43,158 nucleotides of DNA from Actinomycetota bacterium. Its GTDB lineage: Bacteria; Actinomycetota; Acidimicrobiia; Acidimicrobiales; Ilumatobacteraceae. This document shows, piece after piece, positions 288-43,132 of the stretch (positions within the stretch are counted from its first letter, which is position 1; each line of letters opens with the position of its first letter). Both the position numbers and the translations under genes were made by a program. Below the pieces are notes generated by a model that did not search any database, was not told the DNA's origin, and worked only from the letters and a program-made list of their open reading frames with translations. The stretch covers positions 1 through 43,158 of the forward strand of contig JAPKZR010000288.1 of NCBI GenBank assembly GCA_026393695.1, given 5' to 3'.

Positions 288-336
288 TGCATGGGCGCGA
301 TTTGGGACAACTGCTGTCCCAAAGCGCGCCCATGCA
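288..336. repeat. 49-bp palindromic intergenic repeat, copy 1
   Basis: TGCATGGGCGCGATTTGGGACA-ACTGC-TGTCCCAAAGCGCGCCCATGCA. The arms are 22 nt with one mismatch (A opposite G). It lies between the stop of the truncated CDS and the DUF559 gene. Confidence 0.95.
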
Positions 337-405
337 ACGAGTTTGGTGATCGCCGATAGCGTTCCGAGAACTTCCCCGCAGATCTTGTCTCTCGTGGAGG
401 TTCTC

Positions 406-1341
406 ATGGATCCTGTTTGGCGTCTGTTGATGAACGACTGGCTGTGTGCGCACGCCGGAGTCATCTCAACTTCGCAGTTGCTTGCGTTCGGTTGCGAACG
501 TCGGATGGTGTGCCGCATGGTCGAGCGCCACGAACTGGTGCCCATGTTCGCTGGCGTGTTCCGCAGCGCGCATTGGCCGCACGGGCGAGATCAGCTGATG
601 ACCGCCGCATGCGTTGGCAATCCCAATGCGGTGGTGGCGTTCACCACGGCCGCGTCGCTGTGGGGATTCCGGCGCCTGCCGCACGACTCGGGTGTGCACG
701 TGCTCGTACCCCACGGTTGTTCGCCGACTTTCGATGGTGTCACGGTGCATCGATGCCGGCGAATCGACGCGATCGACATCGTGCAGCGCGCCGATGGCAT
801 CCGCCTCACCAGTCCAACGCGCACGTTGTTCGACAGCGCCGACCAGTTGGGCATCGAGTCGGCGTCGTCGGTGCTTGAGCAGCTCATCAACGACGGCCGC
901 GGCACGTTTGCCACGCATGCCAGCACGGTTGCCCGCCTCGGCCATTCGCGTCGGCCTGGCACGCGCACCATGGTGAAGGTCATCGGCTCGCGACCCGCAT
1001 GGCGCAAGGCCATGCAGTCTGATCTTGAAGCGCGGGTGCTCAACGAGATGGCTCGTCAGAACCTTCCGGTGCCGCGGGTTCAGTATCCATTTCGGATGCC
1101 CGATGGTCGGCGCATCCGATTCGATTTTGCGTGGCCAACCTTGCGCGAGGCGCTCGAGGTCGACCATCCGTTCTGGCATGCGGGCGCATCCGAGTCGCAT
1201 CGCGACAAGCATCGAGACCGCAAAATGGGCACGGTCGGATGGCATACAACTCGCATCACCAGCCTCGACATCGACGGTGGCCTCCGCGAGTCGATCGCCG
1301 ACATCGCTGCGATCTTGGCTCAAGCCCGTCCCCACCGCTGA
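406..1341 (+). CDS. DUF559 / Vsr-like endonuclease-fold domain protein with an N-terminal AbiEi_4-like winged-helix region
   Basis: The C-terminus (...RIRFDFAWPTLREALEVDHPFWH...HRDRKMGTVGWHTTRIT) matches the DUF559 core pattern. The N-terminal half resembles the wHTH region usual in actinobacterial DUF559 proteins. GGAGG at 396-400 sits 5 nt before ATG 406. The track ORF start at 283 reads through repeat copy 1 and is rejected. Confidence 0.8.
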   Translation: MDPVWRLLMNDWLCAHAGVISTSQLLAFGCERRMVCRMVERHELVPMFAGVFRSAHWPHGRDQLMTAACVGNPNAVVAFTTAASLWGFRRLPHDSGVHVLVPHGCSPTFDGVTVHRCRRIDAIDIVQRADGIRLTSPTRTLFDSADQLGIESASSVLEQLINDGRGTFATHASTVARLGHSRRPGTRTMVKVIGSRPAWRKAMQSDLEARVLNEMARQNLPVPRVQYPFRMPDGRRIRFDFAWPTLREALEVDHPFWHAGASESHRDKHRDRKMGTVGWHTTRITSLDIDGGLRESIADIAAILAQARPHR

Positions 1342-1371
1342 CCCCGACTCAGCATCGTCCCCAAACCCTGT

Positions 1372-1420
1372 TGCATGGGCGCGATTTGGGACAACTGCTG
1401 TCCCAAATCGCGCCCATGCA
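1372..1420. repeat. 49-bp palindromic intergenic repeat, copy 2
   Basis: TGCATGGGCGCGATTTGGGACA-ACTGC-TGTCCCAAATCGCGCCCATGCA, with perfect 22-nt arms. It lies between convergent genes (DUF559 stop 1341, hydrolase stop 1494). Confidence 0.97.
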
Positions 1421-1482
1421 GACAAAAGCAGGGCTGGAGAGCGTGGAGAGCGTGCCGGGCGGAGTTGAGAGCCGGGCGGAGT
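1421..1482. repeat. A-tract plus G-rich tail of copy 2, built from short direct repeats
   Basis: The tail starts gacaaaag. GGAGAGCGT is then tandemly duplicated (1436-1444, 1445-1453), and GCCGGGCGGAGT occurs twice (1454-1465, 1471-1482). Confidence 0.85.
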
Positions 1483-1493
1483 AGGGGAGTGGG

Positions 1494-3149
1494 CTACTTG
1501 GCGGTGATGCCGGTGCCGGTTGGGATGCTGATGGAGATCGCGCTGAAGTCGATCTTGCCGCCAAGGCGCGGCTGGGCGTAAGCGACCGTGGTGGCCACGA
1601 TTTGCAGGGTGACGCTGGTGCCGGGGTGTGCAGTAAACGCAACCACCTCAAGCGGAACTGTCACCGTGTGCGGCTGGCCATCGAGCGTGACAGCGATGGG
1701 CGTGATCTGGTTGCCGAGCACCAGTCCGGTGGCGTCGTCGACTAGTTGAGCGAACACCCGAGTAGGCCGCACGCCATCGGGCGTGCTGCCGCTATAGGTA
1801 ATGGTCAGTTCGGGTGCGCCGATCATGATCGCAGTAGTTGCAGATGCAACTACTTTCACATCGACGGCATTGGTTGCCTTGGCTGGCGTGATCGGTGGAA
1901 CCACTGCATCGAGAATCGATCCGGTGCTTGAGTCGGTTACCGGGCCCGCTCCGCCGTCGGCCGTGAGCGACAGCGATCCGCTGCCCTCGGCCTTGAGGGC
2001 AGCGCCGGCAGCAACGGGGTAGTCGTCGGCCACGTATGAGATGCCGTCTTGATCGACGAACTCAAACCGTGCGCCAGTACTCACTGCAGCATCCTGTTTC
2101 ACATAGCGATCGAGCCAGGCAATGCTGGCGTCGGATACGCGAGCAACATCGCCTGGCTTGGTGAGGCAGATGCCGTGGCCGCCGCAGAACCACATCATCG
2201 CCGACGGAGCGCCCGAGTTCTTGAGCAACGCAAAGTTGCTGATCGCTTCATCGAGCGAGAACAAGGTGTCGACGGTTCCCTGCACGATCAGAGTGGGAAT
2301 CTTGATCTTGCTGATCAAGTCACCAGGACCGCGGCTGGCAAACCAAGCCTTGTTTTCGTCGGACACAGTGCCGGTGTCCTTGCTCGAGGTGTTGGCATCG
2401 GTGATGTGCGGATCAACCTGGCGGCCGTTAGATACAAGCGTCAAGATGCCCGACCATCCGGTCTTGGCCGTGTCGGACTTGAACAAACTGGTGACCAACG
2501 AGTGCCACGCAATCACCGGCACGATTGCGTCGACACGGCAGTCGATCGCAGCAGTGACCAACTGGATGCCGCCGCCATACGAAGCGCCGATCATCCCCAT
2601 CCGTGGGTCGCCCGCTTGATCGAGTTCTACTGCAGGTTGTTCGGCAACCCAATCGATGAGCTGGCCAACATCGAGCGCTTCGTGGTCCACATCATCGATG
2701 GTGATGGTGCCGGTGGACTTTCCGAAACCGCGAGGATCCCACGTGAGCACGTTGTAGCCGGCGGCGCGCAATGTGGCGATGTTTACTTGGCCGAGGATGC
2801 CAACGACGTCGGGATTGGTGTCGCCACCCGAACCCCAGCCGGGCCCCATCAACACGGTTGGGGCCACCTCGCCAGATGCGAGTGACGGCAGCGGGAACCA
2901 ATGGGCGCGGATGATGGTGCCATCGAACGAGGTGATGTCGTAGTCGCTGGAGGCATCGGCAACAGCGGCGGCTGTGGGAGCGCCAGCGTCCTTCACCGAA
3001 CAGCCAGCCGAAGCAGCCTGCGTGTCGGCGGTAGCGGTATCTGTGGTGACTGAAGCCGGTGTCGACGGTGCAACTGACGAGTTGGCGGCGCTCGAAGAAC
3101 TGCATGCAGCCACGGTGAGCGCAGCAACGCACACCAAGGCCACCCGCAT
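1494..3149 (-). CDS. Secreted lipoprotein; alpha/beta-fold serine hydrolase (CocE/NonD / peptidase S15-like)
   Basis: MRVALVCVAALTVAAC is a lipoprotein signal with lipobox. GASYGG is a nucleophile elbow. The size and C-terminal beta-rich domain fit CocE/NonD-type hydrolases. Start is set at ATG 3149 because the longer track ORF (to 3272) reads through repeat copy 3. Confidence 0.75.
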   Translation of the reverse strand: MRVALVCVAALTVAACSSSSAANSSVAPSTPASVTTDTATADTQAASAGCSVKDAGAPTAAAVADASSDYDITSFDGTIIRAHWFPLPSLASGEVAPTVLMGPGWGSGGDTNPDVVGILGQVNIATLRAAGYNVLTWDPRGFGKSTGTITIDDVDHEALDVGQLIDWVAEQPAVELDQAGDPRMGMIGASYGGGIQLVTAAIDCRVDAIVPVIAWHSLVTSLFKSDTAKTGWSGILTLVSNGRQVDPHITDANTSSKDTGTVSDENKAWFASRGPGDLISKIKIPTLIVQGTVDTLFSLDEAISNFALLKNSGAPSAMMWFCGGHGICLTKPGDVARVSDASIAWLDRYVKQDAAVSTGARFEFVDQDGISYVADDYPVAAGAALKAEGSGSLSLTADGGAGPVTDSSTGSILDAVVPPITPAKATNAVDVKVVASATTAIMIGAPELTITYSGSTPDGVRPTRVFAQLVDDATGLVLGNQITPIAVTLDGQPHTVTVPLEVVAFTAHPGTSVTLQIVATTVAYAQPRLGGKIDFSAISISIPTGTGITAK

Positions 3150-3155
3150 CTTGTT

Positions 3156-3204
3156 TGCATGGGCGCGGTTTGGGACAACTCCTGTCCCAAACCGCGCCCA
3201 TGCG
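3156..3204. repeat. 49-bp palindromic intergenic repeat, copy 3
   Basis: TGCATGGGCGCGGTTTGGGACA-ACTCC-TGTCCCAAACCGCGCCCATGCG. It carries an A>G / T>C compensatory pair relative to copies 2 and 4. It ends 6 nt from the hydrolase start codon, in a divergent promoter region. Confidence 0.95.
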
Positions 3205-3281
3205 GGATGGGTGGACGTGGGGGAGGTGGCAGACGAGTGCGACCGGTGACGGGAGAGCAGCATGGGTGTCAAAGTATCAGG

Positions 3282-3303: not shown

Positions 3304-3411
3304 GATCTATTGGGACTTCCGGCCCTAGTAGCCGCTCAGTCAACGGGCGTACCGTCCAGATCAGATTCGAATCGCTCGAACTAATCCGACAAGCGACCTC
3401 TCGGTCGAGAT

Positions 3412-5538
3412 ATGGGGCCTATCGCCGTGATGAGTTACCCAACCGACAAGATCCGCAATGTTGTGCTGGTCGGCCATAGCGGGTCTGGCAAGACCACGTT
3501 GGCAGAGGCTGTCTTGGTGAAGGCAGGAGCGATTGAGCGCGGTGGGCGTGTGGATGAAGGCACCAGTGTGCTCGACAATGAACCAGAAGAGATCCGTCGG
3601 CGGCTCTCGCTCACGCTCTCGATGGCGCCGTTCGAATGGCAGGCCCCCGACGGGCTGACCTACAAGATCAATCTGATCGACACTCCCGGATATGCCGACT
3701 TCGTCGACGAGGTCGATGCCGCGCTCGATGTTGCCGACCTTGCCGTGGTCGTGGTGAGTGCCGTTGATGGCGTCGAGTTGCAGACCGAACTGCTGTGGCG
3801 CAAGGTTGCCGAACGGGGCATGCCGCGCATGATCTTCGTGAACAAGCAGGATCGTGAACGCGCCGATTTCGATGGCGTGCTCGCTCAGCTGCGAGCAGTG
3901 TTTGGCGCAGCGGTGCTGGCGCTCGAGCTTCCACTCGGAGAGGCCGCGGCACTGCACGGGCTCGCCGATGTGCTGGCCGAAGAGGCACTCGAATACTCAC
4001 CGGGTCATCCGCGTCGCGTCGATGCGTTGCCGCAGGACATTGTCGACCGCGAACACGACGCACACATGGCGCTCGTTGAGGAGATCGTTGCTGGCGACGA
4101 CGAGCAGCTTGGCCACTACCTCGCTGGCGACGAGCTCAGCGTGGCTGATCTTGAGCGAACCCTCGCACGCGAAGTTTGCGAGTGTAAAGCGTTCCCGCTG
4201 TTGGTCGGGTCGGCTGCCACCGGCGTTGGGGTTGATCGTCTTGCTGACTTCATCTGCGAGCTTGCCCCGTCGCCGCTCGATCGCGCAGTCGGCGTGTTCG
4301 CGGCAGAACAAATGATTCCTGTTTCGGCCGATGCTTTGGGCTCGTCGTTGGCCTACGTATTCAAGACCGTTGCCGATCCGTTCGTGGGTCAGCTGTCGTT
4401 GTTCAAAGTGCTGTCGGGAACGATCACTGCCGACGATCGCTTGGTGAACGGCCGAACCGGTGGCGACGAACGGCTACGCACGCTGTTCACGCTGCGCGGC
4501 AAGGAGCAGGCGCCGATGGCGAAGCTTTCTGCGGGCGATATCGGCGGTGTGTCGAAGCTTGCCGACTCGCGTGCCGGCGACACATTGGCGCCGAAAGGTT
4601 TGCCGGTGTCGATGCCGGTCAACGATCGCCTCGTGCCGCAGTTTGGTGTGGCGATCACGCCTCGCACCCAAGCCGACGATGACAAGCTTGGCTCTGCGTT
4701 GAACAAGTTGCTGGCCGAGGATCCGTCCTTGCGACTTGACCATGTTGCCGAAACGGGTCAGACGATCTTGCGTGGCTTTGGCGAGATGCACGTAGCGGTT
4801 GCCATCGAACGGCTCGCCCGCAAGTTCGGGGCATACGTAGACACGGGAGAGGTGTGCGTGGCCTATCGCGAAACCATCGCTAGTACCGCCGAAGCTGCGG
4901 GCAAAGTAAAGAAGCAGACCGGTGGCCATGGCCAGTACGCGGTAGCGAACCTGCGTGTTGCGCCCTTGCTTCGTGGAGCCGGGTTCGAGTTCACCGATTC
5001 GATTGTGGGCGGGGCGTTACCTCGCACGTTTATCTCGGCGGTGCAAAAAGGTGTCGAGGAAGCGATGCTGCGCGGCGGCCTCTACGGCTTCCCCGTGGTC
5101 GACGTTCATGTTGATTGTTTCGACGGCAAGTTCCACTCGGTCGATTCAAGCGAGATGGCGTTTAGGTCGGCCGCTGCTCAGGGCCTCAAAGATGCGCTCG
5201 CCGCCGCTGGAGTGTCGGTGCTTGAACCAATTTCACTGGTCACCGTGACCGTGCCAAGTTTGTTCGAGGGCGAAGTGATGACTGACATCGTTGCGCGTCG
5301 CGGACGTGTGCAGGGCACCGATCTGGGTCCATACGGACAGCATCTGATTCATGCGCTGGTGCCCGCAAGTGAGTTGATGCGCTACGCCGTTGAGCTTCGT
5401 TCAATGACCGCGGGACGCGGGCAGTTCAGCGTGCAGCATGATCACTACGACACGCTTCCGGCTCACCTTGTGAAAAAGGCGGTCGAGGCGTCGCAACGCA
5501 CCACGGGCCATTCGTCGAAAGAGATGTCGACGAAGTGA
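3412..5538 (+). CDS. Elongation factor G-like translational GTPase (EF-G paralogue)
   Basis: G1 motif VGHSGSGKTTL, DTPGYADF (G3) and NKQD (G4), with full five-domain EF-G length. It is not in an rpsL-rpsG-fusA-tuf context. In-frame alternative starts are GTG 3427 and ATG 3430. Confidence 0.9.
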   Translation: MGPIAVMSYPTDKIRNVVLVGHSGSGKTTLAEAVLVKAGAIERGGRVDEGTSVLDNEPEEIRRRLSLTLSMAPFEWQAPDGLTYKINLIDTPGYADFVDEVDAALDVADLAVVVVSAVDGVELQTELLWRKVAERGMPRMIFVNKQDRERADFDGVLAQLRAVFGAAVLALELPLGEAAALHGLADVLAEEALEYSPGHPRRVDALPQDIVDREHDAHMALVEEIVAGDDEQLGHYLAGDELSVADLERTLAREVCECKAFPLLVGSAATGVGVDRLADFICELAPSPLDRAVGVFAAEQMIPVSADALGSSLAYVFKTVADPFVGQLSLFKVLSGTITADDRLVNGRTGGDERLRTLFTLRGKEQAPMAKLSAGDIGGVSKLADSRAGDTLAPKGLPVSMPVNDRLVPQFGVAITPRTQADDDKLGSALNKLLAEDPSLRLDHVAETGQTILRGFGEMHVAVAIERLARKFGAYVDTGEVCVAYRETIASTAEAAGKVKKQTGGHGQYAVANLRVAPLLRGAGFEFTDSIVGGALPRTFISAVQKGVEEAMLRGGLYGFPVVDVHVDCFDGKFHSVDSSEMAFRSAAAQGLKDALAAAGVSVLEPISLVTVTVPSLFEGEVMTDIVARRGRVQGTDLGPYGQHLIHALVPASELMRYAVELRSMTAGRGQFSVQHDHYDTLPAHLVKKAVEASQRTTGHSSKEMSTK

Positions 5539-5572
5539 GCCAAACCGTGTTGGCAGAGTAGAAAGGCTCTGC

Positions 5573-6694
5573 ATGGATCTCTCGGTTACGGTCACACCTC
5601 TTTATCTCGGATCAATGGTTGCTGAAGATCGCGCCCTCAAGAAGCGGGCTGCGGTTCACGGTCCTTCGGCTGCCGACTATCTCAAGGCCGATACGCGGGC
5701 GAGCCTCGCGATGGGCTTCGGCAGCGTGATCGTTCCGATCACCGAATACCTTCTGCGCCCGTTGATTCCCGGTAAGGGACGCTTTGGCCGTCTGCTCATC
5801 GGCACCGCTGTGTCAGCAGTTGTCGTGACCTCGGTCGCCGATCGCATCGTGAAGCAAGCGCCCGATACCGACCAGGGCCACCGACTGCGGCGGCGCGCTC
5901 GACAGGTAGCCAGCGTCGGCGGCGTTACCGCCATCGCTGCGGGTGGACTCGCTCTCACCACGGGTACGACCTATCTCACCAATGCCCAACGGCAGTGGAG
6001 CAAGGGTAAGCATCGCGACCTTGGCAAAGGCCCGCTTGCCTGGCTGACCGCGATGATCGGCTGGGATTTCATCTACTACTGGAACCATCGCTTCATGCAT
6101 CAGATTCGTGTGATGTGGGCGATTCACGTAGTGCACCACTCCAGCGAGCATTACAACTTGTCTACCGCTCTTCGTCAGCCGGTGGCCAGTGCGTTTGGCG
6201 TGTGGGTGCCAGCAGGATGGCTCGCCCGACTGGGCGTGCGGCCAACGCTCATCGAGACGTCACGAGCGCTGAACTTGATCTACCAATTCTGGATTCACAC
6301 CGATCTCGTGCGCACATTGGGGCCCGCCGAAGAAGTGCTCAACACGCCGTCGCATCACCGTGCCCATCACGGCGTCAACAAGCGTTACCTCGATCGCAAC
6401 CATGGCGGAATCCTCATCATTTGGGATCGGCTGTTTGGCACGTTCGCTCGCGAACGCGCCGACGACCCTGTTGTGTACGGCCTGACCAAGAACATCGACA
6501 CCTACAACGTGGTCACAATCGCCACACACGAATACCGCGACATTGTGCGCGACGTCGCCAACTCAACGAACTGGAAAGACCGTCTGTCGTTCGTATTCCG
6601 CGGCCCAGGTTGGGCGTACTCGAGGCACGAGGCACAGCGATACAGCGAAGTAGCCCCCATCGAATTCGACACTGCGAACTTGGAGCCCATGTGA
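5573..6694 (+). CDS. Fatty acid hydroxylase / sterol desaturase superfamily membrane di-iron oxygenase
   Basis: Histidine boxes HRFMH, HVVHH and HHRAHH, hydrophobic N-terminal segments, and GAAAGG upstream of ATG 5573. Confidence 0.88.
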   Translation: MDLSVTVTPLYLGSMVAEDRALKKRAAVHGPSAADYLKADTRASLAMGFGSVIVPITEYLLRPLIPGKGRFGRLLIGTAVSAVVVTSVADRIVKQAPDTDQGHRLRRRARQVASVGGVTAIAAGGLALTTGTTYLTNAQRQWSKGKHRDLGKGPLAWLTAMIGWDFIYYWNHRFMHQIRVMWAIHVVHHSSEHYNLSTALRQPVASAFGVWVPAGWLARLGVRPTLIETSRALNLIYQFWIHTDLVRTLGPAEEVLNTPSHHRAHHGVNKRYLDRNHGGILIIWDRLFGTFARERADDPVVYGLTKNIDTYNVVTIATHEYRDIVRDVANSTNWKDRLSFVFRGPGWAYSRHEAQRYSEVAPIEFDTANLEPM

Positions 6695-8169
6695 CCACTG
6701 AAGCCAACAACGAGGCAGCGCAACGCCCGCTTCGATTCGCCATCATCGGCGCCGGTATGTCGGGCATTCTCAGCGCTATCAAGCTTTCCGAGGCTGGCTT
6801 CAACGATTACACGGTCTACGAAAAGGCCGAACGCCTTGGCGGAACGTGGCGAGAGAACACCTATCCGGGCATCGCTTGCGATGTGCCGTCGCACCTCTAT
6901 AGCTACTCGTTTGAGCCCAACCCCGAGTGGAGTCACCGCTTTGCTCCGGGTGCCGAAATTCAGGCCTACTTCGAGGGTGTCGCGCAGAGGCACGCAGTCC
7001 CTGAGCGCATCGTGTTTGGCACCGCAATATCTCAGGCCGAGTTCGTGAATGGCCGATGGAACCTCACCACTACCGACGGGCGCACCGACACCGTCGACGT
7101 GATCATTGCGGCCACCGGCGTGTTGCACCATCCCAACATTCCGCATCTCGACGGCATCGAGTCGTTCGCGGGGGCCTCATTTCACAGCGCGCGCTGGGAC
7201 CACAGCGTGCAGCTTGATGGCCGTCGCGTCGGCGTGATTGGCACGGGTTCTACGGCGGTGCAGATCGTGGCAGCGTTGGTCGATCAGGTCAGTGAGATCA
7301 CCATGTTTCAGCGCACGCCGCAGTGGATTGGCCCACAGGAAAATCCGGCCTTCACCGAGGCCGAGATTGAGCAATTCAAGGAACATCCCGAGATCATCAC
7401 GATGATGCGCGACGAAATTTCGCGCGGCTTCGCCGATCGGTTTTCGAATGCTGTGATCAACGCCGATTCGCCTGAGATGCAACTCATTGAGGCGGTTTGT
7501 AAGGCGCATCTCGAAGACAGCGTGCACGACCCGGTGCTGCGCGAAAAGCTGCGGCCCGACTATCGAGCTGCGTGTAAGCGCCTCGTCATTTCTGGCGACT
7601 TTTATTCGGCTATCCAAAAGCCCAAAGCCGAACTGGTCACCGAAGGCATCCAGTGCATCGAGCCAGGCGGCGTGCGCACTGTCGACGGGCAACTGCACGA
7701 ACTCGATGTGCTCGTGTTGGCAACCGGTTTCCGCGTCGACCGCTTCATGCGCCCGATGAATGTGATCGGTCGCGACGGCCGAGTGCTCGACGACGTGTGG
7801 GCTCATGGTCCAGTGGCAATGCTGTCGATCTCAGTGCCTGACTTCCCGAACCTGTTCATGCTCAACGGCCCCAACGGTCCGGTGGGCAACTTCTCGCTGA
7901 TCGAGGTGGCCGAACTGCAGATTGCCTACGTGCTCGAACTTGTCGAAGAGATTCGCGCCGGACGTTGCACACAGATCAGCGCAGGCCGCGAAGCCACGGC
8001 CGCGTTCGATGCTGCACGTAAAGAAGCCGCCAAGACCACGGTGTGGGCCACCGGCTGTCGCAGTTGGTATCTCGACGCCGATGGTATTCCAGCCACCTGG
8101 CCGTGGACCTTCGATCACTTCCGTCACGAGATGGCGGCACCCAAGATGGACCACTACGAACGCATCTAG
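6691..8169 (+). CDS. Type I Baeyer-Villiger / flavin-containing monooxygenase
   Basis: GAGMSG (FAD Rossmann), BVMO fingerprint FAGASFHSARWD (FxGxxxHxxxW[P/D]), and a second Rossmann GVIGTGSTAVQ. GTG 6691 overlaps the upstream stop (ATGTGA), with GGAG at 6682-6685. The track ORF extension back to 6115 overlaps the hydroxylase gene and is rejected. Confidence 0.88.
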   Translation: MTTEANNEAAQRPLRFAIIGAGMSGILSAIKLSEAGFNDYTVYEKAERLGGTWRENTYPGIACDVPSHLYSYSFEPNPEWSHRFAPGAEIQAYFEGVAQRHAVPERIVFGTAISQAEFVNGRWNLTTTDGRTDTVDVIIAATGVLHHPNIPHLDGIESFAGASFHSARWDHSVQLDGRRVGVIGTGSTAVQIVAALVDQVSEITMFQRTPQWIGPQENPAFTEAEIEQFKEHPEIITMMRDEISRGFADRFSNAVINADSPEMQLIEAVCKAHLEDSVHDPVLREKLRPDYRAACKRLVISGDFYSAIQKPKAELVTEGIQCIEPGGVRTVDGQLHELDVLVLATGFRVDRFMRPMNVIGRDGRVLDDVWAHGPVAMLSISVPDFPNLFMLNGPNGPVGNFSLIEVAELQIAYVLELVEEIRAGRCTQISAGREATAAFDAARKEAAKTTVWATGCRSWYLDADGIPATWPWTFDHFRHEMAAPKMDHYERI

Positions 8170-10213: not shown

Positions 10214-11812
10214 ATGAGCCACTTCACGCGGCCCGCATTCGCATTCGTATTCGCTGTAGCGCTCTTGGGTGTCTCGTCGTGTTCATCGTCGGGATCAAGC
10301 GGTGGCGACACCGCGGCGTCCGCCACGGTTGCATCAACCTCGGCTGCTACTGACGCGCCCACCACAACCGTGGCGCGGCCCGCCTTCAAGCCCGACGCTG
10401 TCGGCGCAGCCACGGTCACGGGCCCCATCACTGGCGGCAAGGGTGGCATCGTCATGGGAATCGGCGGACTCGATCTTGCGTCGGTTGGCTACACCCAAGA
10501 AGAGTTCTTCTTGTCGGGTGACGCTGCGTCGTATTCGTCGGCGGCGCCGTTGAGCAGCGATGGCAACTGGACGATTACCGAAGGCACGCCAGCGCCGTTC
10601 ACAACACGCATCGTTGTCCGTCGTCCCATCGACGCTACGAAGTTCAACGGCACCGTTGCGGTCGAGTGGCTCAACGTGACCGCCGGATTCGACAACGCCC
10701 CTGACTGGAGCTTCGCTCACACAGAGCTCATTCGAGATGGTTGGACATGGGTCGGCGTGTCGGCACAGTCGGTGGGCATCGTTGGGGGCGGCAACGCGCT
10801 CGGCGCAGCGCTGGCGTTGAAGGCTGCCGACCCTGATCGCTACGCAGCGCTCAGCCACCCTGGCGATAGCTACTCGTACGACATGTTCAGCCAAGCCGGA
10901 GCTGTGGTGCGTACCCAAGCAGCGCAAGTGCTCGGCGGCCTCGAACCCAAGCACGTGATCGCATTCGGAGAGTCGCAGTCGGCGTTCCGCTTGAACACCT
11001 ACGTGAATGCCGTTGCGCCGATTGCCAATGTGTACGACGGGTTCCTCATCCACAGCCGCGGGGCTGTTGGCGCTGCGCTGTCGCAGACACCGCTGCCTGA
11101 TATCGCTGCACCAGACCCAACGCTCATCCGCACCGATCTCGGCGTGCCGGTTCTCAACTTCTTGTCAGAGACCGACATGCTCGGCGACCGTCTTGGCTAT
11201 GGCCGCGCCGAACAGCCCGACACCGATTTTGTTCGCGCATGGGAAGTTCCTGGAACGGCGCACGCCGATGTGTACAGCCTTGGTATTGGTGACACTGACA
11301 ATGGCTCAGGTGCTGGCGATGCCGCACTGTTCGCTGCGCTGCTCACGCCGAACAGTTCGATCTACGGCGGTGTGATCAAGTGCGATCTCGGTATTAATGC
11401 CGGCCCGCACACCTATGTGCTGCGCAGCGCAATCGCTGCGTTGAACGCTTGGGTTTCGATCCGCGTGACGCCGCCGGCCATGCCGCGTATCCCGCTCAAC
11501 GCCGACAAGACCAGCGTTGTGCTTGACCCTGCCGGCAATGCAACGGGTGGCATCCGCATGCCGCAGGTCGATGTGCCGCTTGCCAAGCTCTCGGGCTCCG
11601 GTCAGACCGGCACCAGCTTTTGCGGATTGTTCGGCACTACGGTTCCGTTCTCTGCGGCGCAGCTTGCTGCGGCCTATCCCGATCACGCCACGTTCGTGAG
11701 CAAGTGGAATGCCGCTGTCGATAGCGCCGTTGCGTCGGGCGCACTGCTCGATGCCGACGCCAAGAATCTGAAGGCCGTCGCCGAAGTATCCACCATCGGC
11801 AACCCCGGCTGA
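10214..11812 (+). CDS. Secreted lipoprotein, possible alpha/beta hydrolase-domain protein
   Basis: MSHFTRPAFAFVFAVALLGVSSC gives a lipobox. AGGGGGA lies just upstream of ATG 10214. FGESQSAF is a possible nucleophile elbow. An in-frame alternative start is ATG 10181. The track ORF start at 9869 overlaps the previous gene and is rejected. Confidence 0.65.
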   Translation: MSHFTRPAFAFVFAVALLGVSSCSSSGSSGGDTAASATVASTSAATDAPTTTVARPAFKPDAVGAATVTGPITGGKGGIVMGIGGLDLASVGYTQEEFFLSGDAASYSSAAPLSSDGNWTITEGTPAPFTTRIVVRRPIDATKFNGTVAVEWLNVTAGFDNAPDWSFAHTELIRDGWTWVGVSAQSVGIVGGGNALGAALALKAADPDRYAALSHPGDSYSYDMFSQAGAVVRTQAAQVLGGLEPKHVIAFGESQSAFRLNTYVNAVAPIANVYDGFLIHSRGAVGAALSQTPLPDIAAPDPTLIRTDLGVPVLNFLSETDMLGDRLGYGRAEQPDTDFVRAWEVPGTAHADVYSLGIGDTDNGSGAGDAALFAALLTPNSSIYGGVIKCDLGINAGPHTYVLRSAIAALNAWVSIRVTPPAMPRIPLNADKTSVVLDPAGNATGGIRMPQVDVPLAKLSGSGQTGTSFCGLFGTTVPFSAAQLAAAYPDHATFVSKWNAAVDSAVASGALLDADAKNLKAVAEVSTIGNPG

Positions 11813-11874
11813 TCCATCCGCCTCGGCCGTCACCCTCCGCGGCCGTCGCCCTCATTATCCGCCGCAATCCCTTT

Positions 11875-11923
11875 TGCATGGGCGCGATTTGGGACAACTG
11901 CTGTCCCAAATCGCGCCCATGCA
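11875..11923. repeat. 49-bp palindromic intergenic repeat, copy 4
   Basis: Identical to copy 2 over all 49 nt. It lies between convergent genes (lipoprotein stop 11812, P450 stop 12015). Confidence 0.97.
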
Positions 11924-11993
11924 GCAAGGTTGAGGGCTGGGGGTGTTGAGGGCTGTGGCTGGGTGAGTTGGGGGGCGAGCGAGTGGGGGACGG
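11924..11993. repeat. G-rich tail of copy 4 with an internal direct repeat
   Basis: GTTGAGGGCTG occurs at 11929-11939 and 11945-11955. Further G-runs follow (GGGGG, GGG, GGGGGG, GGGGG). Confidence 0.85.
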
Positions 11994-23000: not shown

Positions 23001-23290
23001 GGTGCTTGCGCGAACAACTGCTGCAACGTGAGCCGGTTCGCTGGAAGATCAATCAGCAAGTTGCGCGGGATGATCACGTTCTGACCACCTACCACCATCT
23101 GCCCGCCGGCGTAGATGTCGCCAGCGACACCATCGGCGTTGAGCGTGATGCGTTCGATCTCGCCCACAATTCGACCTGACGTCGCCACGGCATGAGCTGG
23201 CGCAGCGTTGGTGAACGGAAGACCCACAGCAAGCACCGCCAGTGCAGCGAGAGTTTTGCGAAACATTGAGGTGTTGCTCGACGTATTCAT
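20048..23290 (-). CDS. Giant secreted protein 1: unrecognised Cys-rich N-terminal domain + IPT/TIG repeats + PKD-like domain + C-terminal Ig-like domain
   Basis: Signal peptide MNTSSNTSMFRKTLAALAVLAVGLPFTNAAPAHA. Three IPT/TIG-type units, e.g. SILPESGEVGTLVTITGTGFLGATQVSFNGAIVAATVVDDTTITATVP. A PKD-like unit VTLDASASSNATTFAWTQLTG. Start is set at ATG 23290, with ATG 23266 as an alternative. Confidence 0.85.
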   Translation of the reverse strand: MNTSSNTSMFRKTLAALAVLAVGLPFTNAAPAHAVATSGRIVGEIERITLNADGVAGDIYAGGQMVVGGQNVIIPRNLLIDLPANRLTLQQLFAQAPAACLKTGETGLAKADRCNLTGTGSIATLAANRVSTGDVIVGDALIEKGLEDVDGTVTYVNYHEGWFMMNGRPGDSTTGTMVRLNDPTARHTVQSGKGCAISSRNCSADPRFALDIDNYTNIFSTGYPLCIPSTTVRQASATLPEFALPTPSDATGAGDTFCPTTNRLDSAGAPLRVAADSRRMAPLLLGDSILVDGNYESVGGVRFLSAHSSQISYGLQTSAVADQPDYMHLTEAFIDMPGFQLQRARSLFIGATTEAVADVLGWSVHYDPAANKSHELPLASSKGCEAAGRALSCAGVVAGTFVIRYDSDFAKRATANLSPCAQLNHEVLFAPVCPTTYSQADEFAVLSPIPHEIHFKTRKKATESSLAPLLSIDINGAQSTNGQYLNPLGISLGGMALPDALELNLDTFNMPYSFEGVPWNLDRRLSPGGCTATGCEATPQPLSPFPYSDSDPRMLAAIAAAAAAATGGVPTGPIGTSVYSNAPLSSAADRILSFIPNGDATTFAGDSSLLDLPTASAVSQGITPTPALDQTAPALLGFDPIGGLAGSSVHVGGLGLDKATTVTIGGVDAMFQVISATRLEVQVPKLAPEGGRDIVITIAHSTSINSVASDVVVSSGTPFNVLHNPLTPTVSSLDVSSGEVGQAVTITGTHLTAATDVLFGSISASASFVVVDDSTITVNVPVGSLEGTVDVKVLTPNGDVAAPSQFTVTVPAPTTTIADAVAIPLADVTSILPESGEVGTLVTITGTGFLGATQVSFNGAIVAATVVDDTTITATVPVHATSGYVTILSPNGTGTGAGFVVVIPAPVAKAVSPIAANQSSVVTLDASASSNATTFAWTQLTGTPVVLTGADTARPTFTMPAQFKDLSFRVTVSNRGTVTSTADVTVTASAGSVTITAGTEFRTTKNQWTAAGTASFPLANTITVRTGNVPGAGTLIGTAVVDALGAWTFTAKGSTVPQNANINVVASRGGSTASSVLIRR

Positions 23291-23648
23291 GATTGCTTGC
23301 TCGATTCGATCTGCTGGGCCTGGTGGGCATCGGGCCACACGGGATGCTCTCGAAAACAAGAACCCCCGGATGACGTCCCACCATTTAGAACCCGGACAGG
23401 ACATACGGCAATACGTCGTACGAAGTAGTCCCTTTGGCCGCGTACCAGGTCGGCAGCAACGCTGCGAACGGGTGGTGATGCCTTCGGCTTCGAGGGGCTA
23501 GCGCCGACACGATCGAAGTCGTCACCGCGCTCGGCGAGACGTGCCGTGCTCGTGCGGAGCAATACAGGCAACGATCTCAGCAATTGCTCAACGAGTCGGA
23601 TGTCTCCTCAGTGCTGAGCAAGATGACGAGCGTGCATGCATCGAGCAC

Positions 23649-27200: not shown

Positions 27201-27433
27201 AGGTTTCGAGGAATGATCACGTTCTGACCACCGACCACCATTTGGCCGCCGGCGTATACGTCGCCTGGAGCGTTGAGGGTGATGCGTTCGATCTCGCCGC
27301 TGATGCTTCCTGCGAGAGCGACGGCGTGAGCTGGGGCGGCCGCAAGAGGGAGGCCCGTCGCGAGGACTGCGAGAGTCACGATGGCTTTGCGCAGTGTTCG
27401 GCGCGGCTTCAGAGTGTTCATTGGTCTGCTCAT
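24233..27433 (-). CDS. Giant secreted protein 2 (paralogue of 20048..23290)
   Basis: Signal peptide ...RRTLRKAIVTLAVLATGLPLAAAPAHA. It is collinear with protein 1 throughout, and the 12 N-domain cysteines are at matching positions. It has three IPT/TIG units, a PPPPPPAPA linker, and PKD-like and terminal Ig-like domains. Start is ATG 27433, or alternatively 27421. Confidence 0.85.
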   Translation of the reverse strand: MSRPMNTLKPRRTLRKAIVTLAVLATGLPLAAAPAHAVALAGSISGEIERITLNAPGDVYAGGQMVVGGQNVIIPRNLLLDLPANRLTLQQLFAQAPAECITNHETGLAKTDRCNHTGVGGTASLSANRVSTGDIIVGDALIEKGAELVQGNVTYIDYNGGWFIINGRQGDPTTGTIVRLNDPTSRHTLQSGPGCAAGSSNCSADPRFGLDTDNYTNAFTSGYPLCIPSTVTTGRATTPVITGLLTNAGANATTGAGDQFCPTTNRVSPSGLPLRIAADSRRMAPIMLGDSITVGGNYETIGGVHFLSAFRSSISYGLQTSASAGQPDYMFINEAGIDVAGFQNQRVRGLFIGFATLPTPDVLGWSVHYDPVQNKAHEMPLASTQGCETAGGIGTCVGFGAGLFKIRYDSDFVKQPTAAKLSPCLQLRADPLFANACPDPANMAAQEFAILSPVPHEIHFRTRKKVTDTTNSLKSIDIKGTESTNGQYLFPFGANLGGISFPEGLEFNLDLANAPFSFEGIPWNLDRRLSPGGCQATGGVCESTPQPLIPFPYSELDPRTQAAGAIAPGGAVPSNRYNDPMFTSAQLSNAQDRILSYIPNDTATAFAGDASVLALPTAAAVSQGITPTPSLTEPSPTLLGFDPSSGQVGAMVHVGGLGLDTATAVTVNGTAAMFSVISATRLDVLVPVGATVGAGSIVVTLPSGNLTSVAQFTVITNPLAPTITGFTPATGDIGSVVTINGTNFSGATAVSFGGLSAAVSVNPAGTQITTNIPLAATAGPVNVSVITPNGTVVAATQLTVTVPPPPPPAPAAITSINPTSSSVGTVVTITGTGFLGATQVSFNGTTTPATVVNSTTITATVPVGATTGTVTIISPNGTGAGKAFTVAAAATPTAVVTTPVSAAQSSLVTLNASASTNAASFAWTQLTGPTVVLTGATTARPSFTMPALFQTLTFRVTVTNQARTSTATVTVTALPGSVTITVATPQYRISKAEWRAAGTASFPGANIVTIRTGNVVGSGTLVGTVAVDATGAWILQVINPSIPVNTAINVVASRGGSATATVTVRN

Positions 27434-27738
27434 TTCGATTTCGGGTGCCTGGTAGCAATCGGCAAGCGAAGTCCGGGGGCTTTGGTCGGGACTTCGCGTG
27501 CAATGGCCATTAGGCATTGGCGCCGGGGGTACAGACAAGAGGCCAATCGTCGTAGGTCTTTTTGATCCCGGGGGTACGCGGCGCGTGCCCCTAATCGGCC
27601 TGTCGGTGCGGACCGTTTCGCGCAACCCCTTGATCTGTAAGGCTTTCCGGATGGCATCCGCTGAGATGAGGTCGTACGACCGATGGTCAATTGGTCGATG
27701 CCCCAGCGATTTGGACGGCGACCGTGCTAGTACCTAGC

Positions 27739-34975: not shown

Positions 34976-35692
34976 TCACTCTGGCAGAGCGACAATTGCC
35001 TCGTGCTCAAGCGTGGCGACCAGCACACCTTCGACACTGATCTGAACATCGAGCACGGCACGCTCGCCGTGCGACTCGAAACGACGCACCACCACGGCGC
35101 TTACGTCGGCGATGGCGCCGGCGCGGGCAAGCGCGTGGTGCCGCACGATGCTGCGCGTATGAATCCAACTGCCGCGCGCCACTGAGGTGTGCACCACATG
35201 ATTGGCGAGCGCTGGCCACACGGCCGGATGCACGATGCCGTGCTGAGCAAAGAGTGCGAAGTCGTCGCCTGCGCGTGAGCCGTAGTCGGAGCCCCATTCG
35301 CCAGCAAGGGGAATGTGTTTATCGGCCAACGCTTCGCCGGGTCGCATTGCAACTGGGTCGGCGCTGCTCCGTACAACCTGAAACACGGCGCGTGGTTGCT
35401 CAGGTTCGTTGGTGAGCGCGTGAATGGACAACTCGTTGTCGTCGACGATGGGCGCGCAACGCAGGTGGTCATGCGCAAACACCGGACGGCGAAATCGAAC
35501 CTCGCCGCCGCCGCTTCGAACCCAGTCGAGTCCCCACGCAGCAACCACCGGATGAGTGAGGTACGCGTAGGTGGTAACCCCCGCCACGAGAGCGCGTGCG
35601 AAGCCAGCGGCCTGAGCGCCTTCGTCGGTGTGGATGGGATTGCGCGCGTGTTCGGGCAGGTTCTGCGCGATCACCGACCACTCAACGGGCAT
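34976..35692 (-). CDS. MaoC-like / hotdog-fold dehydratase-type protein
   Basis: NPIHTDEGAQAAGFARALVAGV is the MaoC motif. Start is given at ATG 35692. An in-frame TTG at 35701 has better spacing to GAAGGAGA. The track start at 35788 reads through repeat copy 5 and is rejected. Confidence 0.78.
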   Translation of the reverse strand: MPVEWSVIAQNLPEHARNPIHTDEGAQAAGFARALVAGVTTYAYLTHPVVAAWGLDWVRSGGGEVRFRRPVFAHDHLRCAPIVDDNELSIHALTNEPEQPRAVFQVVRSSADPVAMRPGEALADKHIPLAGEWGSDYGSRAGDDFALFAQHGIVHPAVWPALANHVVHTSVARGSWIHTRSIVRHHALARAGAIADVSAVVVRRFESHGERAVLDVQISVEGVLVATLEHEAIVALPE

Positions 35693-35753
35693 GTCGCTCA
35701 AAACAATGTCTCCTTCACGAGTCGATTGGGCTGGAGTTGGCATCCGCCAAGCT

Positions 35754-35802
35754 CGCATGGGCGCGATTTGGGACAACTGCTGTCCCAAACCGCGCCCAAG
35801 CA
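35754..35802. repeat. 49-bp palindromic intergenic repeat, copy 5
   Basis: CGCATGGGCGCGATTTGGGACA-ACTGC-TGTCCCAAACCGCGCCCAAGCA, which is degenerate at both ends. It is followed by GACAAAAACGGGGGCTG (A-tract plus G-rich). It lies between the mgsA stop and the MaoC-like gene start. Confidence 0.93.
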
Positions 35803-35826: not shown

Positions 35827-36261
35827 TCAGTCGATGTGCGCGAAGGGCGAATACGTTTCACCCATGAGCGGACTCGACAGCAAGAAGTCGGCGGTCGAGC
35901 GGTTGCACGCCATCGGGGTGTTGTACACAACGGCGATGCGCAGCAGTGCCTTTACGTCGACATCGTGTGGCTGGGGCTCAAGCGGATCCCAGAAGAAGAT
36001 CACAAGATCAAGCTGGCCCGTTGCGATCGCTGCGCCGATTTGCTGATCTCCGCCAAGGGGTCCGCTGAGGTAGCGGTGGATGGGCAGCCCGAGGTTGTCG
36101 GCCAGCAACTTGCCGGTGGATCCTGTGGCCGACAGGTCGTGGCGCGAGAGCGTGCCCACATTGAACGTGGCCCAGTTGAGCATGTCCTTCTTGCGGTTGT
36201 CGTGAGCAATCATTACAACGCGCTTACGGGCCTTCATCGGTTCTCGCACGGGTTGATCCAT
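35827..36261 (-). CDS. mgsA: Methylglyoxal synthase
   Basis: VVMIAHDNRKKDML...ATGSTG...GPLGGDQQIGA...FFWDPL..QPHDVDVKALLR are MgsA signatures. Start is ATG 36261, or alternatively 36237. Confidence 0.92.
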   Translation of the reverse strand: MDQPVREPMKARKRVVMIAHDNRKKDMLNWATFNVGTLSRHDLSATGSTGKLLADNLGLPIHRYLSGPLGGDQQIGAAIATGQLDLVIFFWDPLEPQPHDVDVKALLRIAVVYNTPMACNRSTADFLLSSPLMGETYSPFAHID

Positions 36262-41342: not shown

Positions 41343-41354
41343 AAGTGGCGACGC

Positions 41355-41855
41355 TTAGATCGGGTCGCTGATCCGCTCGAGCGTGATGACGACTCCGCCC
41401 ATGTCGGGGCGGGTCCAGATCATGTGGCCATCGGCATCAAGACGTCGCGTCACTTCGATGCCTGGCATACCAACGGGCCGCAACACGAACACGCCGTCTT
41501 CGTACGACGCAACCACATGGATCGGTGTGGTGTAGTCGAAGACCGAAACATCGTGCACAGCGTTGGCCTCGGTGCCGTCGGCGCGGGCGTCGGCGATGGT
41601 GCCGCCGCCGCAATCGACAATGCGGTTGCCGCACTGCTCAATGCGCTCGCTGTAGCTCAGCAGGCGGTCGCCTTCGGGTACGGGTTGGTCGCCGCGCAGA
41701 GCACGCACGACCTTCCAGATGCCACGCAGATCGGGAGCTCCAGCCACCAATGGTTCGTTGCATCCAGCGAGGATCAGCGGTGGAAAGTTGGGGCCGTATC
41801 CGCCTGCGGGAGTATGGGCCACAGGGATGTCATCGGCAGCAAGTTCGATAGTCAC
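41355..41855 (-). CDS. Hypothetical protein
   Basis: Clean 166-aa ORF with ordinary composition. No family recognised. Confidence 0.55.
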   Translation of the reverse strand: MTIELAADDIPVAHTPAGGYGPNFPPLILAGCNEPLVAGAPDLRGIWKVVRALRGDQPVPEGDRLLSYSERIEQCGNRIVDCGGGTIADARADGTEANAVHDVSVFDYTTPIHVVASYEDGVFVLRPVGMPGIEVTRRLDADGHMIWTRPDMGGVVITLERISDPI

Positions 41856-41909
41856 GTCGTGACCCTACATGCGTGACCGTCGATGGCTGCAGTGGCCAAG
41901 CGGCGTGGC

Positions 41910-42890
41910 CTAACCCCGGTTCTTGCCCGACTTGCCGGATGCGCCGCCGTGATCGTCGATGCCGTCGCCGTTGGAGTCGTCGTCAGTTGAGTTCGACTTG
42001 CCATCGCCGTCGACATCGTCGTCAGATGAGTTCGACTTGCCATCGCCGTCGATGTCATCATCGACTGAGTTTGACCGACCGTCACCGTCGGCATCGGTGT
42101 CTACAGCGTCGAGGATGCCATCGCCGTCGATGTCCTTCTCGGCGACTGCGCCATTGGAGAGTTCGTCACCGTCGACGTCGTTGTCGGAGCCGTTGCTTGA
42201 TCCGTCGCCGTCTACGTCTGAGTCGTTGCCGTTGCTTGATCCGTCGCCGTCAGCGTCGCTATCGATGCCATCGCGGATGCCGTCGCCGTCGATGTCCTTC
42301 TCGTTCGATGCGCCGTTTGGCAGGGCATCGCCGTCTACGTCTGAGTCGCGGCCGTTGGTCTGGCCATCGCCGTCGACGTCGTCATCAAGGCCGTTCGAGC
42401 GGTGGTCGCCGTCTACGTCTGAGTCGCGGCCGTTGCGCACTCCGTCGCCGTCAACATCTGAGTCTTGGCTGTTGGAGAGGCCGTCGCCGTCGACGTCACG
42501 GTCGGAACCGTTTGCTGAGGAGTCGCCATCCATGTCGTTGTCCGAGGTGTCGGGGCTGCCGTCGCCGTCGATGTCTTTTTCGTTCTTGGAACCGTTCAGG
42601 TCGCCGTCGCCGTCGACATCGTGGTCGTTCACGTTCGGGATGCGATCGCCGTCTACGTCTGAGTCCGAGCCGTTACGAATGCCGTCACCGTCTACGTCTG
42701 GGTCGACCTTGTTCGCAATGCCATCGTGGTCGTTGTCGAGCTTCGACGATGAAGCCGATGCAACGCCTCCCTGGCTGGCGCCAACAAAGGCGATGGCCGG
42801 GGCGAGGGCGAAGAACGATGCAGCGCCAGCGCGAACCAAACGGCTACGAAGGCTCTTCTCGGCGTAACGACGCGAGGTAGATGGCAACAT
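41910..42890 (-). CDS. Secreted protein made of ~20 thrombospondin type-3-like Ca-binding repeats (DxDxDGxxDxxD)
   Basis: The N-terminal signal (TSRRYAEK...AGAASFFALAPAIAFVGA) is possibly Tat-like. It is followed by reiterated D.D.DGDG..N units such as SDVDGDG and EKDIDGDG. The plus-strand ORFs over the same DNA are repeat artefacts. Confidence 0.8.
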   Translation of the reverse strand: MLPSTSRRYAEKSLRSRLVRAGAASFFALAPAIAFVGASQGGVASASSSKLDNDHDGIANKVDPDVDGDGIRNGSDSDVDGDRIPNVNDHDVDGDGDLNGSKNEKDIDGDGSPDTSDNDMDGDSSANGSDRDVDGDGLSNSQDSDVDGDGVRNGRDSDVDGDHRSNGLDDDVDGDGQTNGRDSDVDGDALPNGASNEKDIDGDGIRDGIDSDADGDGSSNGNDSDVDGDGSSNGSDNDVDGDELSNGAVAEKDIDGDGILDAVDTDADGDGRSNSVDDDIDGDGKSNSSDDDVDGDGKSNSTDDDSNGDGIDDHGGASGKSGKNRG

Positions 42891-43083
42891 TTGGGGTCCC
42901 CCTGGACAAAGTGCAGCGCTGTTTCACGCATGCTGTAGACGAGCAACATCGCATGCACCTGCGGAGATGTCAATCGCTCTGAGGAGATTGGGCCAAAAGT
43001 CCACATGTGGAGCGACTCAAGACCTAGGACCAGCGCAACGGCACTTGCATCGCGCGCTCGCCGCTGACATCCGCTCGCCTCGT

Positions 43084-43132
43084 TGCATGGGTGCGGTTTG
43101 GGACAGCAGCTGTCCCAAACCGCGCCCATGCT
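43084..43132. repeat. 49-bp palindromic intergenic repeat, copy 6
   Basis: TGCATGGGTGCGGTTTGGGACA-GCAGC-TGTCCCAAACCGCGCCCATGCT. It has the same G/C compensatory pair as copy 3, plus one T opposite G. It shares the flank CATGCAACGAG with copy 1 in the opposite orientation. Confidence 0.93.

Follow-up and report, generated by a model that had tools for sequence, protein, structure and literature searches.

A constrained REP-like palindrome family in freshwater Acidimicrobiia with a possible role at transcript ends

Six palindromes in the window

The window, meaning the whole stretch of DNA analyzed, comprises 43,158 nucleotides (nt) of an Actinomycetota bacterium of the Ilumatobacteraceae (assembly GCA_026393695.1, contig JAPKZR010000288.1, positions 1 to 43,158), and our subject is a 49-bp near-perfect palindrome that recurs between its genes. 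A sequence-only reading of this DNA had reported six copies. All six were recovered by a pattern search allowing up to 3 mismatches, at positions 288, 1372, 3156, 11875, 35754, and 43084, each with 0 to 2 mismatches to the family pattern; 0 chance matches were expected based on 100 dinucleotide-preserving shuffles of the window. A repeat finder recovered the same family, with similarity outside the 49-mer gone within ∼12 nt. Genes were called with a codon-usage caller trained on long open reading frames (ORFs) and annotated using Pfam. The GC content of the window is 60 to 64%, and no tRNA was detected in it. The copies are as follows, with stem pairs numbered along the 49-mer and sampled loci from other assemblies given as L numbers.

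Copy 1, 288..336: mismatch A/G at pair 13/37, loop ACTGC; between co-directional genes, 59 nt past the stop of gene fragment 1-228 (+) and 48 nt ahead of 385-1341 (+); the orthologue at L004:1504 has A-T at 13/37
Copy 2, 1372..1420: perfect consensus; between convergent genes, 30 nt past the stop at 1341 (+) and 73 nt past the stop of 1494-3143 (-); orthologue at L149:494 and a truncated copy at L004:2576-2632
Copy 3, 3156..3204: G-C at 13/37, loop ACTCC; divergent spacer, in which a minus-strand S15-type lipoprotein peptidase has its ATG (3149) 6 nt away and an EF-G-family gene (3412) follows after 207 nt; the G-C state is common to the orthologues in L019, L030, and L149
Copy 4, 11875..11923: same sequence as copy 2; between a convergent Abhydrolase_10 gene, 10214-11812 (+), and P450 gene, 12015-13277 (-); orthologues in L014 and L031
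Copy 5, 35754..35802: A/C at 13/37 and A/A at 4/46; in the 83 nt separating two minus-strand genes, 24 nt downstream of where 35827-36237 stops and 10 nt upstream of where 34976-35743 is called to start
Copy 6, 43084..43132: G-C at 13/37, T.G at 9/41, loop GCAGC; 244 nt upstream of the Ca-repeat gene 41910-42839 (-), the orthologous site in L006 being divergent; orthologues have A/C at 13/37 in 6 of 8 cases, and L009 has G-C as in the window

The gene contexts described earlier were thus essentially right (copies 2 and 4 convergent, 1 and 5 co-directional, 3 divergent, and 6 upstream of the Ca-repeat gene), as was the identity of copies 2 and 4, which extends over all 49 nt. Every window copy folds into a 22-bp stem capped by a 5-nt loop, with energies of -35 to -53 kcal/mol and z scores of -6 to -10. 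The loop is asymmetric, reading ACTGC or its reverse complement GCAGT, and the element therefore has an orientation. Pair 13/37 is A-T in two of the six copies, G-C in two, A/G in one, and A/C in one. Further stem irregularities are T.G at 9/41 and T/T at 1/49 in copy 6 and A/A at 4/46 in copy 5.

Distribution and inheritance

Copies also occur outside the window. When one genome per bacterial and archaeal species was scanned, the pattern GCGNTTTGGGACANNNNNTGTCCCAAANCGC matched 37 loci in only three metagenome-assembled genomes (MAGs), Actinomycetota ELA250, Acidimicrobiaceae ZH-Jul18-164, and ELA314. A metagenome scan with the inner core only added at least ∼33 further loci with the full 49-mer, all of ∼61% GC and mostly from lake samples. 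In total, we sampled at least 84 complete copies in at least 70 loci and one more that a contig end truncates; copy and site statistics rest on 84 of these copies in 70 loci (506 kb). No half elements occurred among the sampled loci, and there was no match to the palindrome in plasmids or viral contigs. Based on flank k-mers, the 84 copies collapse into ∼26 orthologous intergenic sites, and all six window sites are occupied in ELA250 too. Each MAG holds ∼18 to 20 exact-pattern copies, which are lower bounds because contigs break near copies.

Indeed, at least five full-length contigs (L004, L043, L044, L067, and L112) end <100 nt from a copy. These contigs, along with L161 and L162, start or end at or near a palindrome, and because contigs so often begin or stop there, the repeat fragments assemblies of this lineage. 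The EF-G-family protein of the window has matches only on 6- to 7-kb metagenome scaffolds, broken near the palindrome. That assemblers do break at the palindrome is the one observation in favor of chance similarity or an assembly artifact. This explanation is already refuted, and its probability is practically nil: the shuffles yield 0 expected matches, and independent MAGs and numerous metagenome assemblies have the same sequence at syntenic sites.

All copies are intergenic under our own gene calls. Four apparent overlaps proved to be over-extended start codons, and no copy lay inside a coding sequence in the sampled loci; an independent gene call in L161 also left the element uncalled. Copies are singlets, with nearest neighbors at least 861 nt apart, and the adjoining genes are housekeeping genes, e.g., those for P450, NifU, ABC transporters, EPSP synthase, and ribosomal protein S15. 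The sequence-only reading had not recognized a described family, in agreement with our searches: no Rfam family exceeded its gathering threshold, a permissive run gave only generic microRNA-hairpin matches far below threshold, and the exact palindrome sequence was not found in a literature search.

We compared 24 orthologous pairs, each pair from different genomes, and found that the copies evolve ∼10 times more slowly than their own flanks. The 44 stem positions were 98.4% identical, versus 83.8% for flanking sequence at 1 to 30 nt and 81.1% at 31 to 60 nt (stems versus adjacent flanks, Fisher P = 7e-38); identity at 61 to 300 nt, mostly coding, was 89 to 92%. The differences that do occur are found mainly in the loop and at positions 2, 9, and 37. 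Even at E ≤ 10, searching the whole 506 kb with an nhmmer profile returned known copies only, and no tail of decayed relics is seen. The palindrome is inherited vertically at roughly two dozen or more syntenic sites, and the family is clade restricted, strictly intergenic, syntenically stable, and strongly constrained in sequence. As far as sequence can tell, this is a previously uncatalogued family of repetitive extragenic palindromic (REP)-like elements under sequence-level constraint.

Conservation of sequence rather than pairing

Paired A>G and T>C changes in copies 3 and 6 had been taken as a sign that the stem, and not just its sequence, is under selection. The G13/C37 state is present in both copies, but copies 1 and 5 are one-sided at the same pair (A/G and A/C mismatches), giving a window tally at 13/37 of 2 paired versus 2 one-sided changes. 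Among 45 distinct sequences, 15 of 22 pairs were invariant, and both sides had changed only at 13/37 and 1/49. The observed covariation score was reached by 63 of 500 shuffles and is not significant, covariation being no higher than in the shuffle control. Over all copies, pair 13/37 was A-T in 61, G-C in 10, A/C in 8, G/T in 4, and A/G in 1; the one-sided states (13 copies) are thus as common as the double changes (10 copies). Pair 1/49 is often T.G or C/A. The G-C state at 13/37 is inherited within sites, and the A/C mismatch there is stable across seven lineages at the site orthologous to copy 6.

Given the nonsignificant covariation, the many invariant pairs, and the persistent mismatches, we conclude that the sequence, not the pairing, is conserved. 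The claim of selection on the stem is not supported, and the significant stem covariation that would mark a structured RNA under such selection was not found among these copies. The same results bear on one explanation of the family, that it is a U-less, “I-shaped” intrinsic terminator spread to many gene ends, with its stem kept by RNA-level selection. Nonsignificant covariation, 15 of 22 invariant pairs, and mismatches at 1/49 and 13/37 that persist in many lineages all argue against it.

Loop flips and an empty site

At three sites, the loops of orthologues are exact reverse complements (ACTGC versus GCAGT) while the flanks are held in one orientation, and a fourth site comes close.

L001, L035, L087, and L140 versus L044 and L058: exact flip, both states in independent assemblies
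L026 versus L027: exact flip
L093 versus the window copy at 35754: exact flip
L008 versus L021: near-exact flip

Three specific substitutions would be needed for an exact flip, and with stems that diverge by 2%, this is very unlikely. Re-insertion of the whole element was rejected as the cause at the copy 5 site, where the A/C asymmetry at 13/37 keeps its orientation and only the loop is inverted. The flips show a hairpin-templated process at the DNA level and have the footprint of intrastrand template switching, a published explanation for both loop inversions and one-step compensatory changes (PMC8794818). Quasipalindrome or template-switch mutagenesis (the Ripley model; Monttinen & Loytynoja 2022, PMC8794818) predicts these two outcomes, and both are seen here. 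Arms would be kept perfectly complementary partly via such hairpin-templated DNA events, which would also flip the loop and turn a one-sided change into a paired one. Since events of this kind can create paired substitutions in one step, such substitutions are not evidence of RNA-level selection. Template switching is, however, a mutational mechanism and not an element family; it explains the complementarity of the arms but neither the conservation of the sequence nor the role of the palindrome.

The flips show that the hairpin forms as DNA in vivo. This favors an explanation without any RNA role, in which the palindrome is a duplex or cruciform site for a sequence-specific protein concerned with the nucleoid, topology, or chromosome organization. 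Gyrase and IHF bind E. coli REP/BIME elements, which offers a parallel. The constraint on sequence rather than pairing, the tens of sites per genome, and a function that would not depend on orientation are likewise consistent with such a site. However, no candidate protein was found, the 22-bp arms far exceed usual operator half-sites, architectural sites such as matS and NBS need no strict avoidance of coding sequence, and the strand-symmetric, C-then-G flanks described below would go unexplained. We therefore consider a pure DNA site very unlikely.

In ZH-Jul18-164 (L009:7406-7425), the spacer orthologous to copy 5 is empty and reads ...ggcatccgccaagct-T-gacaaaaacgggg..., whereas its filled counterparts in the window, L032, L142, and L093 read ...ccaagc[tc]-CGCATGGG...CCCA[AT]GCA-[ga]acaaaa.... 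In this one orthologous pair, filled and empty sites differ by exactly 48 nt, and no target sequence is duplicated. The palindrome, either gained or lost at this site, enters or leaves spacers as an exact 48- to 49-bp unit.

Transposase search and the shared core

Such a clean indel is what IS200/IS605- and RAYT-type transposition produces, and it is an argument that the family is a purely selfish, REPIN-type element without host function, copied by a single-copy RAYT (a HUH/Y1 transposase) elsewhere in the genome and kept uniform by a master copy. RAYT genes are normally flanked by their own REPs. We searched six-frame ORFs of the 506 kb around all sampled copies, including every exact-pattern copy of two MAGs, and found no Y1 transposase or RAYT homologue in any family locus. 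The queries were E. coli RayT, the RAYT-like protein of L066, a 23-sequence profile, and jackhmmer; the latter three were added because E. coli RayT as a single query missed a true RAYT in the sampled loci.

Vertical inheritance and long persistence also fit a REPIN, since REPINs have been described as vertically inherited and long-lived and are reported to decay upon RAYT loss (bioRxiv 10.1101/2021.07.10.451892). Other features fit poorly. The copies here are singlets, not doublets, and have no consistent GTAG or CGTC head. Copying from a master explains neither the ∼10-fold-slower evolution of orthologous copies nor the absence of relics. In favor of a REPIN, an unrelated low-GC palindrome family with the same core, TTTGGGACA-N5-TGTCCCAAA, flanks a RAYT-like gene (L066, L052, and L131), but this sharing may be due to chance given the size of the database, and the homologues of another RAYT, that of L100, lack the motif. 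On balance, we judge a selfish REPIN unlikely.

The inner core was considered as a RAYT recognition motif and then dropped as evidence of membership, because a 9-mer may be shared by chance among the very many palindrome families of a database of 241 million records; we retain it as a lead only. It also lies at the center of two unrelated palindrome families. One, of ∼70 nt, occurs on contigs of ∼51 to 60% GC and reads ATTGTCCCTGACAAGTTTAGCTTG-TTTGGGACA-AAAAT-TGTCCCAAA-CAAGCTAAACTTGTCAGGGACAAT; the 9-bp inner arms and 5-nt loop length are common to it and the window family, and each arm has its own inverted TTGTCCC/GGGACAA pair. It was seen in L038, L054, L056, L063, L073, L076, L078, and ∼17 more loci (Ga0256404 and Ga0256406 metagenomes). 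The other is the low-GC REP family, AAAC-TTTKGGACA-TCSGA-TGTCCCAAA-GTTW, which stands on both sides of a 237-amino-acid (aa) RAYT-like gene (L066, 7027-9285; also L052 and L131), with a degenerate copy inside that gene in L066. The encoded protein matches Y1_Tnp (E = 1.5e-9) and the NCBIfam model REP_Tyr_transpos (E = 1.8e-11).

Two further loci contain the core. In L100, three TTTGGGACA/TGTCCCAAA motifs stand in a row (2727-2760), 2.5 kb from a RAYT (5295-6281) that combines Y1_Tnp with a C-terminal DnaA domain-IV-like helix-turn-helix (DnaA_C); this protein had 7880 matches, mostly in Desulfuromonadaceae and Desulfobulbaceae, and no core motif was found around its homologues. In L086 (∼460-560), at least six direct TGTCCCAA repeats, spaced by ∼10 to 12 nt, surround a TTTGGGACA-N5-TGTCCCAAA palindrome ∼650 nt upstream of a phage large-terminase gene and may form a packaging or operator array.

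Flank composition

The sequence around the palindrome is skewed in composition in the same way on both strands. Read on either strand, the 60 nt 5' of the palindrome are C rich (mean GC skew of -0.38, negative at 26 of 26 sites) and the 60 nt 3' of it are G rich (mean of +0.35, positive at 24 of 26). The skew decays by ∼80 nt and is not shared by palindrome-free spacers. It is found whether the neighboring genes are convergent, tandem, or divergent, is stronger where the flank faces a gene 3' end, and is also present at the empty site. Canonical G-quadruplex motifs were found in 21 of 84 3' flanks and their complements in 12 of 84 5' flanks, never on the opposite side. Examples in the window are listed below.

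Copy 1 5' flank, 228..287: C rich, GC skew of -0.46; the 3' flank is unskewed (-0.04)
Copy 2 5' flank, 1312..1371: C rich, GC skew of -0.52 over the adjacent 50 nt, including the degenerate outer-arm consensus CCCCAAACCCTGT
Copy 2 3' flank, 1421..1480: G rich, GC skew of +0.50
Copy 3 3' flank, 3205..3264: G rich, GC skew of +0.60; indels among orthologues, with G richness kept
Copy 4 5' flank, 11815..11874: C rich, GC skew of -0.41
Copy 4 3' flank, 11924..11983: G rich, GC skew of +0.76; G runs, possible G-quadruplex

A degenerate consensus reaches ∼12 nt outward, CCCCAAACCCWGT|TGCA...TGCA|ACWGGGTTTGGGG. We rejected extended pairing between the two flanks: true flanks fold no better than composition-preserving shuffled ones (mean z of -0.16, with no site below -2), and their complementarity is thus in composition only. 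The flanks are often locus-specific short tandem repeats that evolve by indels. Examples adjoin the palindrome in L008 (∼7514-7573), L031 (∼805-864), L003 (∼2804-2863), and L035 (∼3636-3695), and the units differ between sites: ccacgtcc repeated six times, gggctgggggtgggtg three times, or a ∼30-nt unit that begins with the palindrome's immediate flank, twice. Local expansion of these repeats suggests replication slippage beside the hairpin.

Placement and role in transcription

We hold, with about as much doubt as confidence, that the palindrome is a lineage-specific REP-like element of a freshwater Acidimicrobiia clade whose likeliest role is that of a bidirectional barrier to, or end point of, transcripts. 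RNA made from either strand would carry a C-rich, G-poor tract resembling a Rho-loading site, then a very stable hairpin, and then a G-rich tract; the barrier might be assisted by Rho. All copies are constrained in sequence beyond what pairing requires, which implies a sequence-specific reader that would recognize the palindrome. The per-site constraint, together with the absence of relics, suggests a host-level or reader-dependent function. Of the roles considered, a bidirectional transcript-end hairpin or barrier is most likely, in that the order of C tract, hairpin, and G tract appears on both strands and the window is without U-tract terminators: matches to that terminator type were not enriched (12 versus 14.6 expected; 11 versus 14.8). 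Also counted in favor of a barrier is the copy-level over-representation of convergent spacers, at 12 of 36 copies versus 18% of background gene pairs.

Placement is otherwise unremarkable. The remaining copies with a defined context are tandem (17) or divergent (7), versus 61% and 21% in the background, and when orthologous copies are merged into sites (∼8 convergent, 11 tandem, and 7 divergent), the convergent excess is not significant (chi-square test, P ∼0.1). The palindrome is placed like any intergenic spacer, with at most a mild convergent preference. Copies lie 10 to 110 nt beyond stops, and 29 of 36 (81%) adjoin at least one gene 3' end, versus 79% of background spacers.

These counts also complete the case for and against the U-less intrinsic terminator introduced above. 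As the sequence-only reading had noted, no copy has a canonical U-tract; on neither strand does a T-run follow a copy, and at some copies A- or T-runs stand on the wrong side. A terminator that dispenses with a U-tract would accord with the very stable hairpin, with the lack of U-tract terminators in the window, and with the 29 of 36 copies at gene 3' ends, and a palindromic terminator motif of conserved sequence has a precedent in the TRIT of Mycobacterium (PMC3152330). Yet the 3'-end adjacency equals that of the background, seven copies lie in divergent spacers, and some are 6 to 10 nt upstream of start codons. Taken with the covariation results, this makes an intrinsic terminator of this type quite unlikely. 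The suggestion that the element is REP/BIME-like or a propagated I-shaped terminator accordingly survives in its first half, as a dispersed intergenic REP-like family, while its second half is weakened by near-random placement and by the proximity to start codons.

Several observations weigh against the transcript-barrier role that we favor. Any RNA-level role is read from sequence. Placement at the site level does not differ significantly from random intergenic positions. Most convergent gene pairs in the window have gaps of 7 to 81 nt and no hairpin, so the palindrome is not a general terminator of the genome. Copies 3 and 5, only 6 and 10 nt from start codons, are oddly placed for a terminator, and a G-rich tract past the hairpin makes for a strong RNA:DNA hybrid, the opposite of an intrinsic terminator. 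Because the empty site shows the skew too, the flanks may be the target of the element or an independent feature and not part of a device. Neither a cognate transposase nor a binding protein was identified.

In a stronger version of the barrier role, the palindrome and its flanks would form a host-maintained bidirectional transcription insulator, with a Rho-loading tract and a roadblock hairpin in both directions, a sequence-specific reader, and self-perfection by hairpin-templated repair. We regard this as quite improbable.

Comparison with known elements

The palindrome appears to belong with REP-like elements. Like the REPs and REPINs of Enterobacteria, Pseudomonas, and Neisseria, it is a short, hairpin-forming extragenic repeat, a class found in tens to hundreds of copies; it occurs in both orientations, is vertically inherited at conserved positions, has a master-like consensus, and is inserted or excised without target duplication (here, in one filled/empty pair). 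Unlike them, it is longer and nearly perfect (22-bp arms), forms neither inverted doublets nor BIME clusters, has no RAYT near any sampled copy, and shows low copy number and no decay tail. A GTAG or CGTC foot is not the rule, as counts show ...GT|TGCA, GTC|TGCA, or GCC|CGCA, with CGTC at only a few sites (L017, L033, L036, and L074). To our knowledge, a strand-symmetric C/G flank skew is not a described feature of REPs.

The closest functional precedent, by analogy, may be TRIT (“Tuberculosis Rho-independent terminator”; Gardner et al. 2011, PMC3152330), likewise a palindromic motif with an actinobacterial host. TRIT is conserved in both sequence and structure, has dozens to ∼150 copies, and is bidirectional, and its authors also inferred a factor that reads the conserved sequence (PMC3152330). 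As described, however, TRIT differs in sequence, is reported only in Mycobacterium (the hosts here being Acidimicrobiia MAGs), and overlaps the stop codon (at about -8), whereas our copies lie beyond stops and are also found between divergent genes and just ahead of start codons.

Rho-dependent terminators (rut plus pause hairpin) offer a partial likeness in the 60- to 80-nt C>G tract that immediately precedes a strong hairpin on both strands. Unlike in these terminators, the putative rut skew is found also on promoter-facing sides and at the empty site. The palindrome does not resemble a miniature inverted-repeat transposable element derived from a DDE transposon: its center is conserved and its periphery degenerates within ∼12 nt, and the empty site shows no target-site duplication.

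Genes beside the palindromes

The start codon of the lipoprotein peptidase next to copy 3 (window 3147-3204) leaves no room for a Shine-Dalgarno sequence, and this arrangement of start codon and palindrome is conserved in L019, L030, and L149. The signal peptide of the protein reads MRVALVCVAALTVAAC. Gene 385-1341 (+), which lies exactly between copies 1 and 2 (1084 nt apart, an arrangement repeated in L004), encodes a 318-aa protein with a weak C-terminal match to REase_MTES_1575 (DUF559-like; E = 4e-4). This AbiEi/DUF559-like protein had no NCBIfam or PDB match, and it was rejected as a cognate nuclease because the gene occurs at that one site only among the sampled loci. The Ca-repeat protein near copy 6 (window 41910-42890, minus strand) has a 39-nt periodic repeat and a weak NCBIfam match to a thrombospondin-type-3-like MtsC family. 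Elsewhere in the window, the minus-strand ORFs 20048-23404 and 24233-27625, of ∼1100 aa each, are adjacent paralogues whose DNA repeats are 69 to 83% identical at a constant offset of ∼4.13 to 4.19 kb.

Implications

The family is a marker for a clade of uncultured freshwater Acidimicrobiia and explains the breakpoints in their assemblies. It also serves as a caution that arguments from covariation can go astray when the stem of a DNA palindrome shows “compensatory” changes. The puzzle that it poses is the combination of evolution ∼10 times slower than that of its flanks, no decayed copies, and no transposase nearby. Should the insulator be real, it would represent a palindrome system that streamlined freshwater Actinobacteria have domesticated and that is independent of a transposase. 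If transcript ends map to the hairpins, this would be the second actinobacterial sequence-conserved palindromic terminator after TRIT, implying a reader protein.

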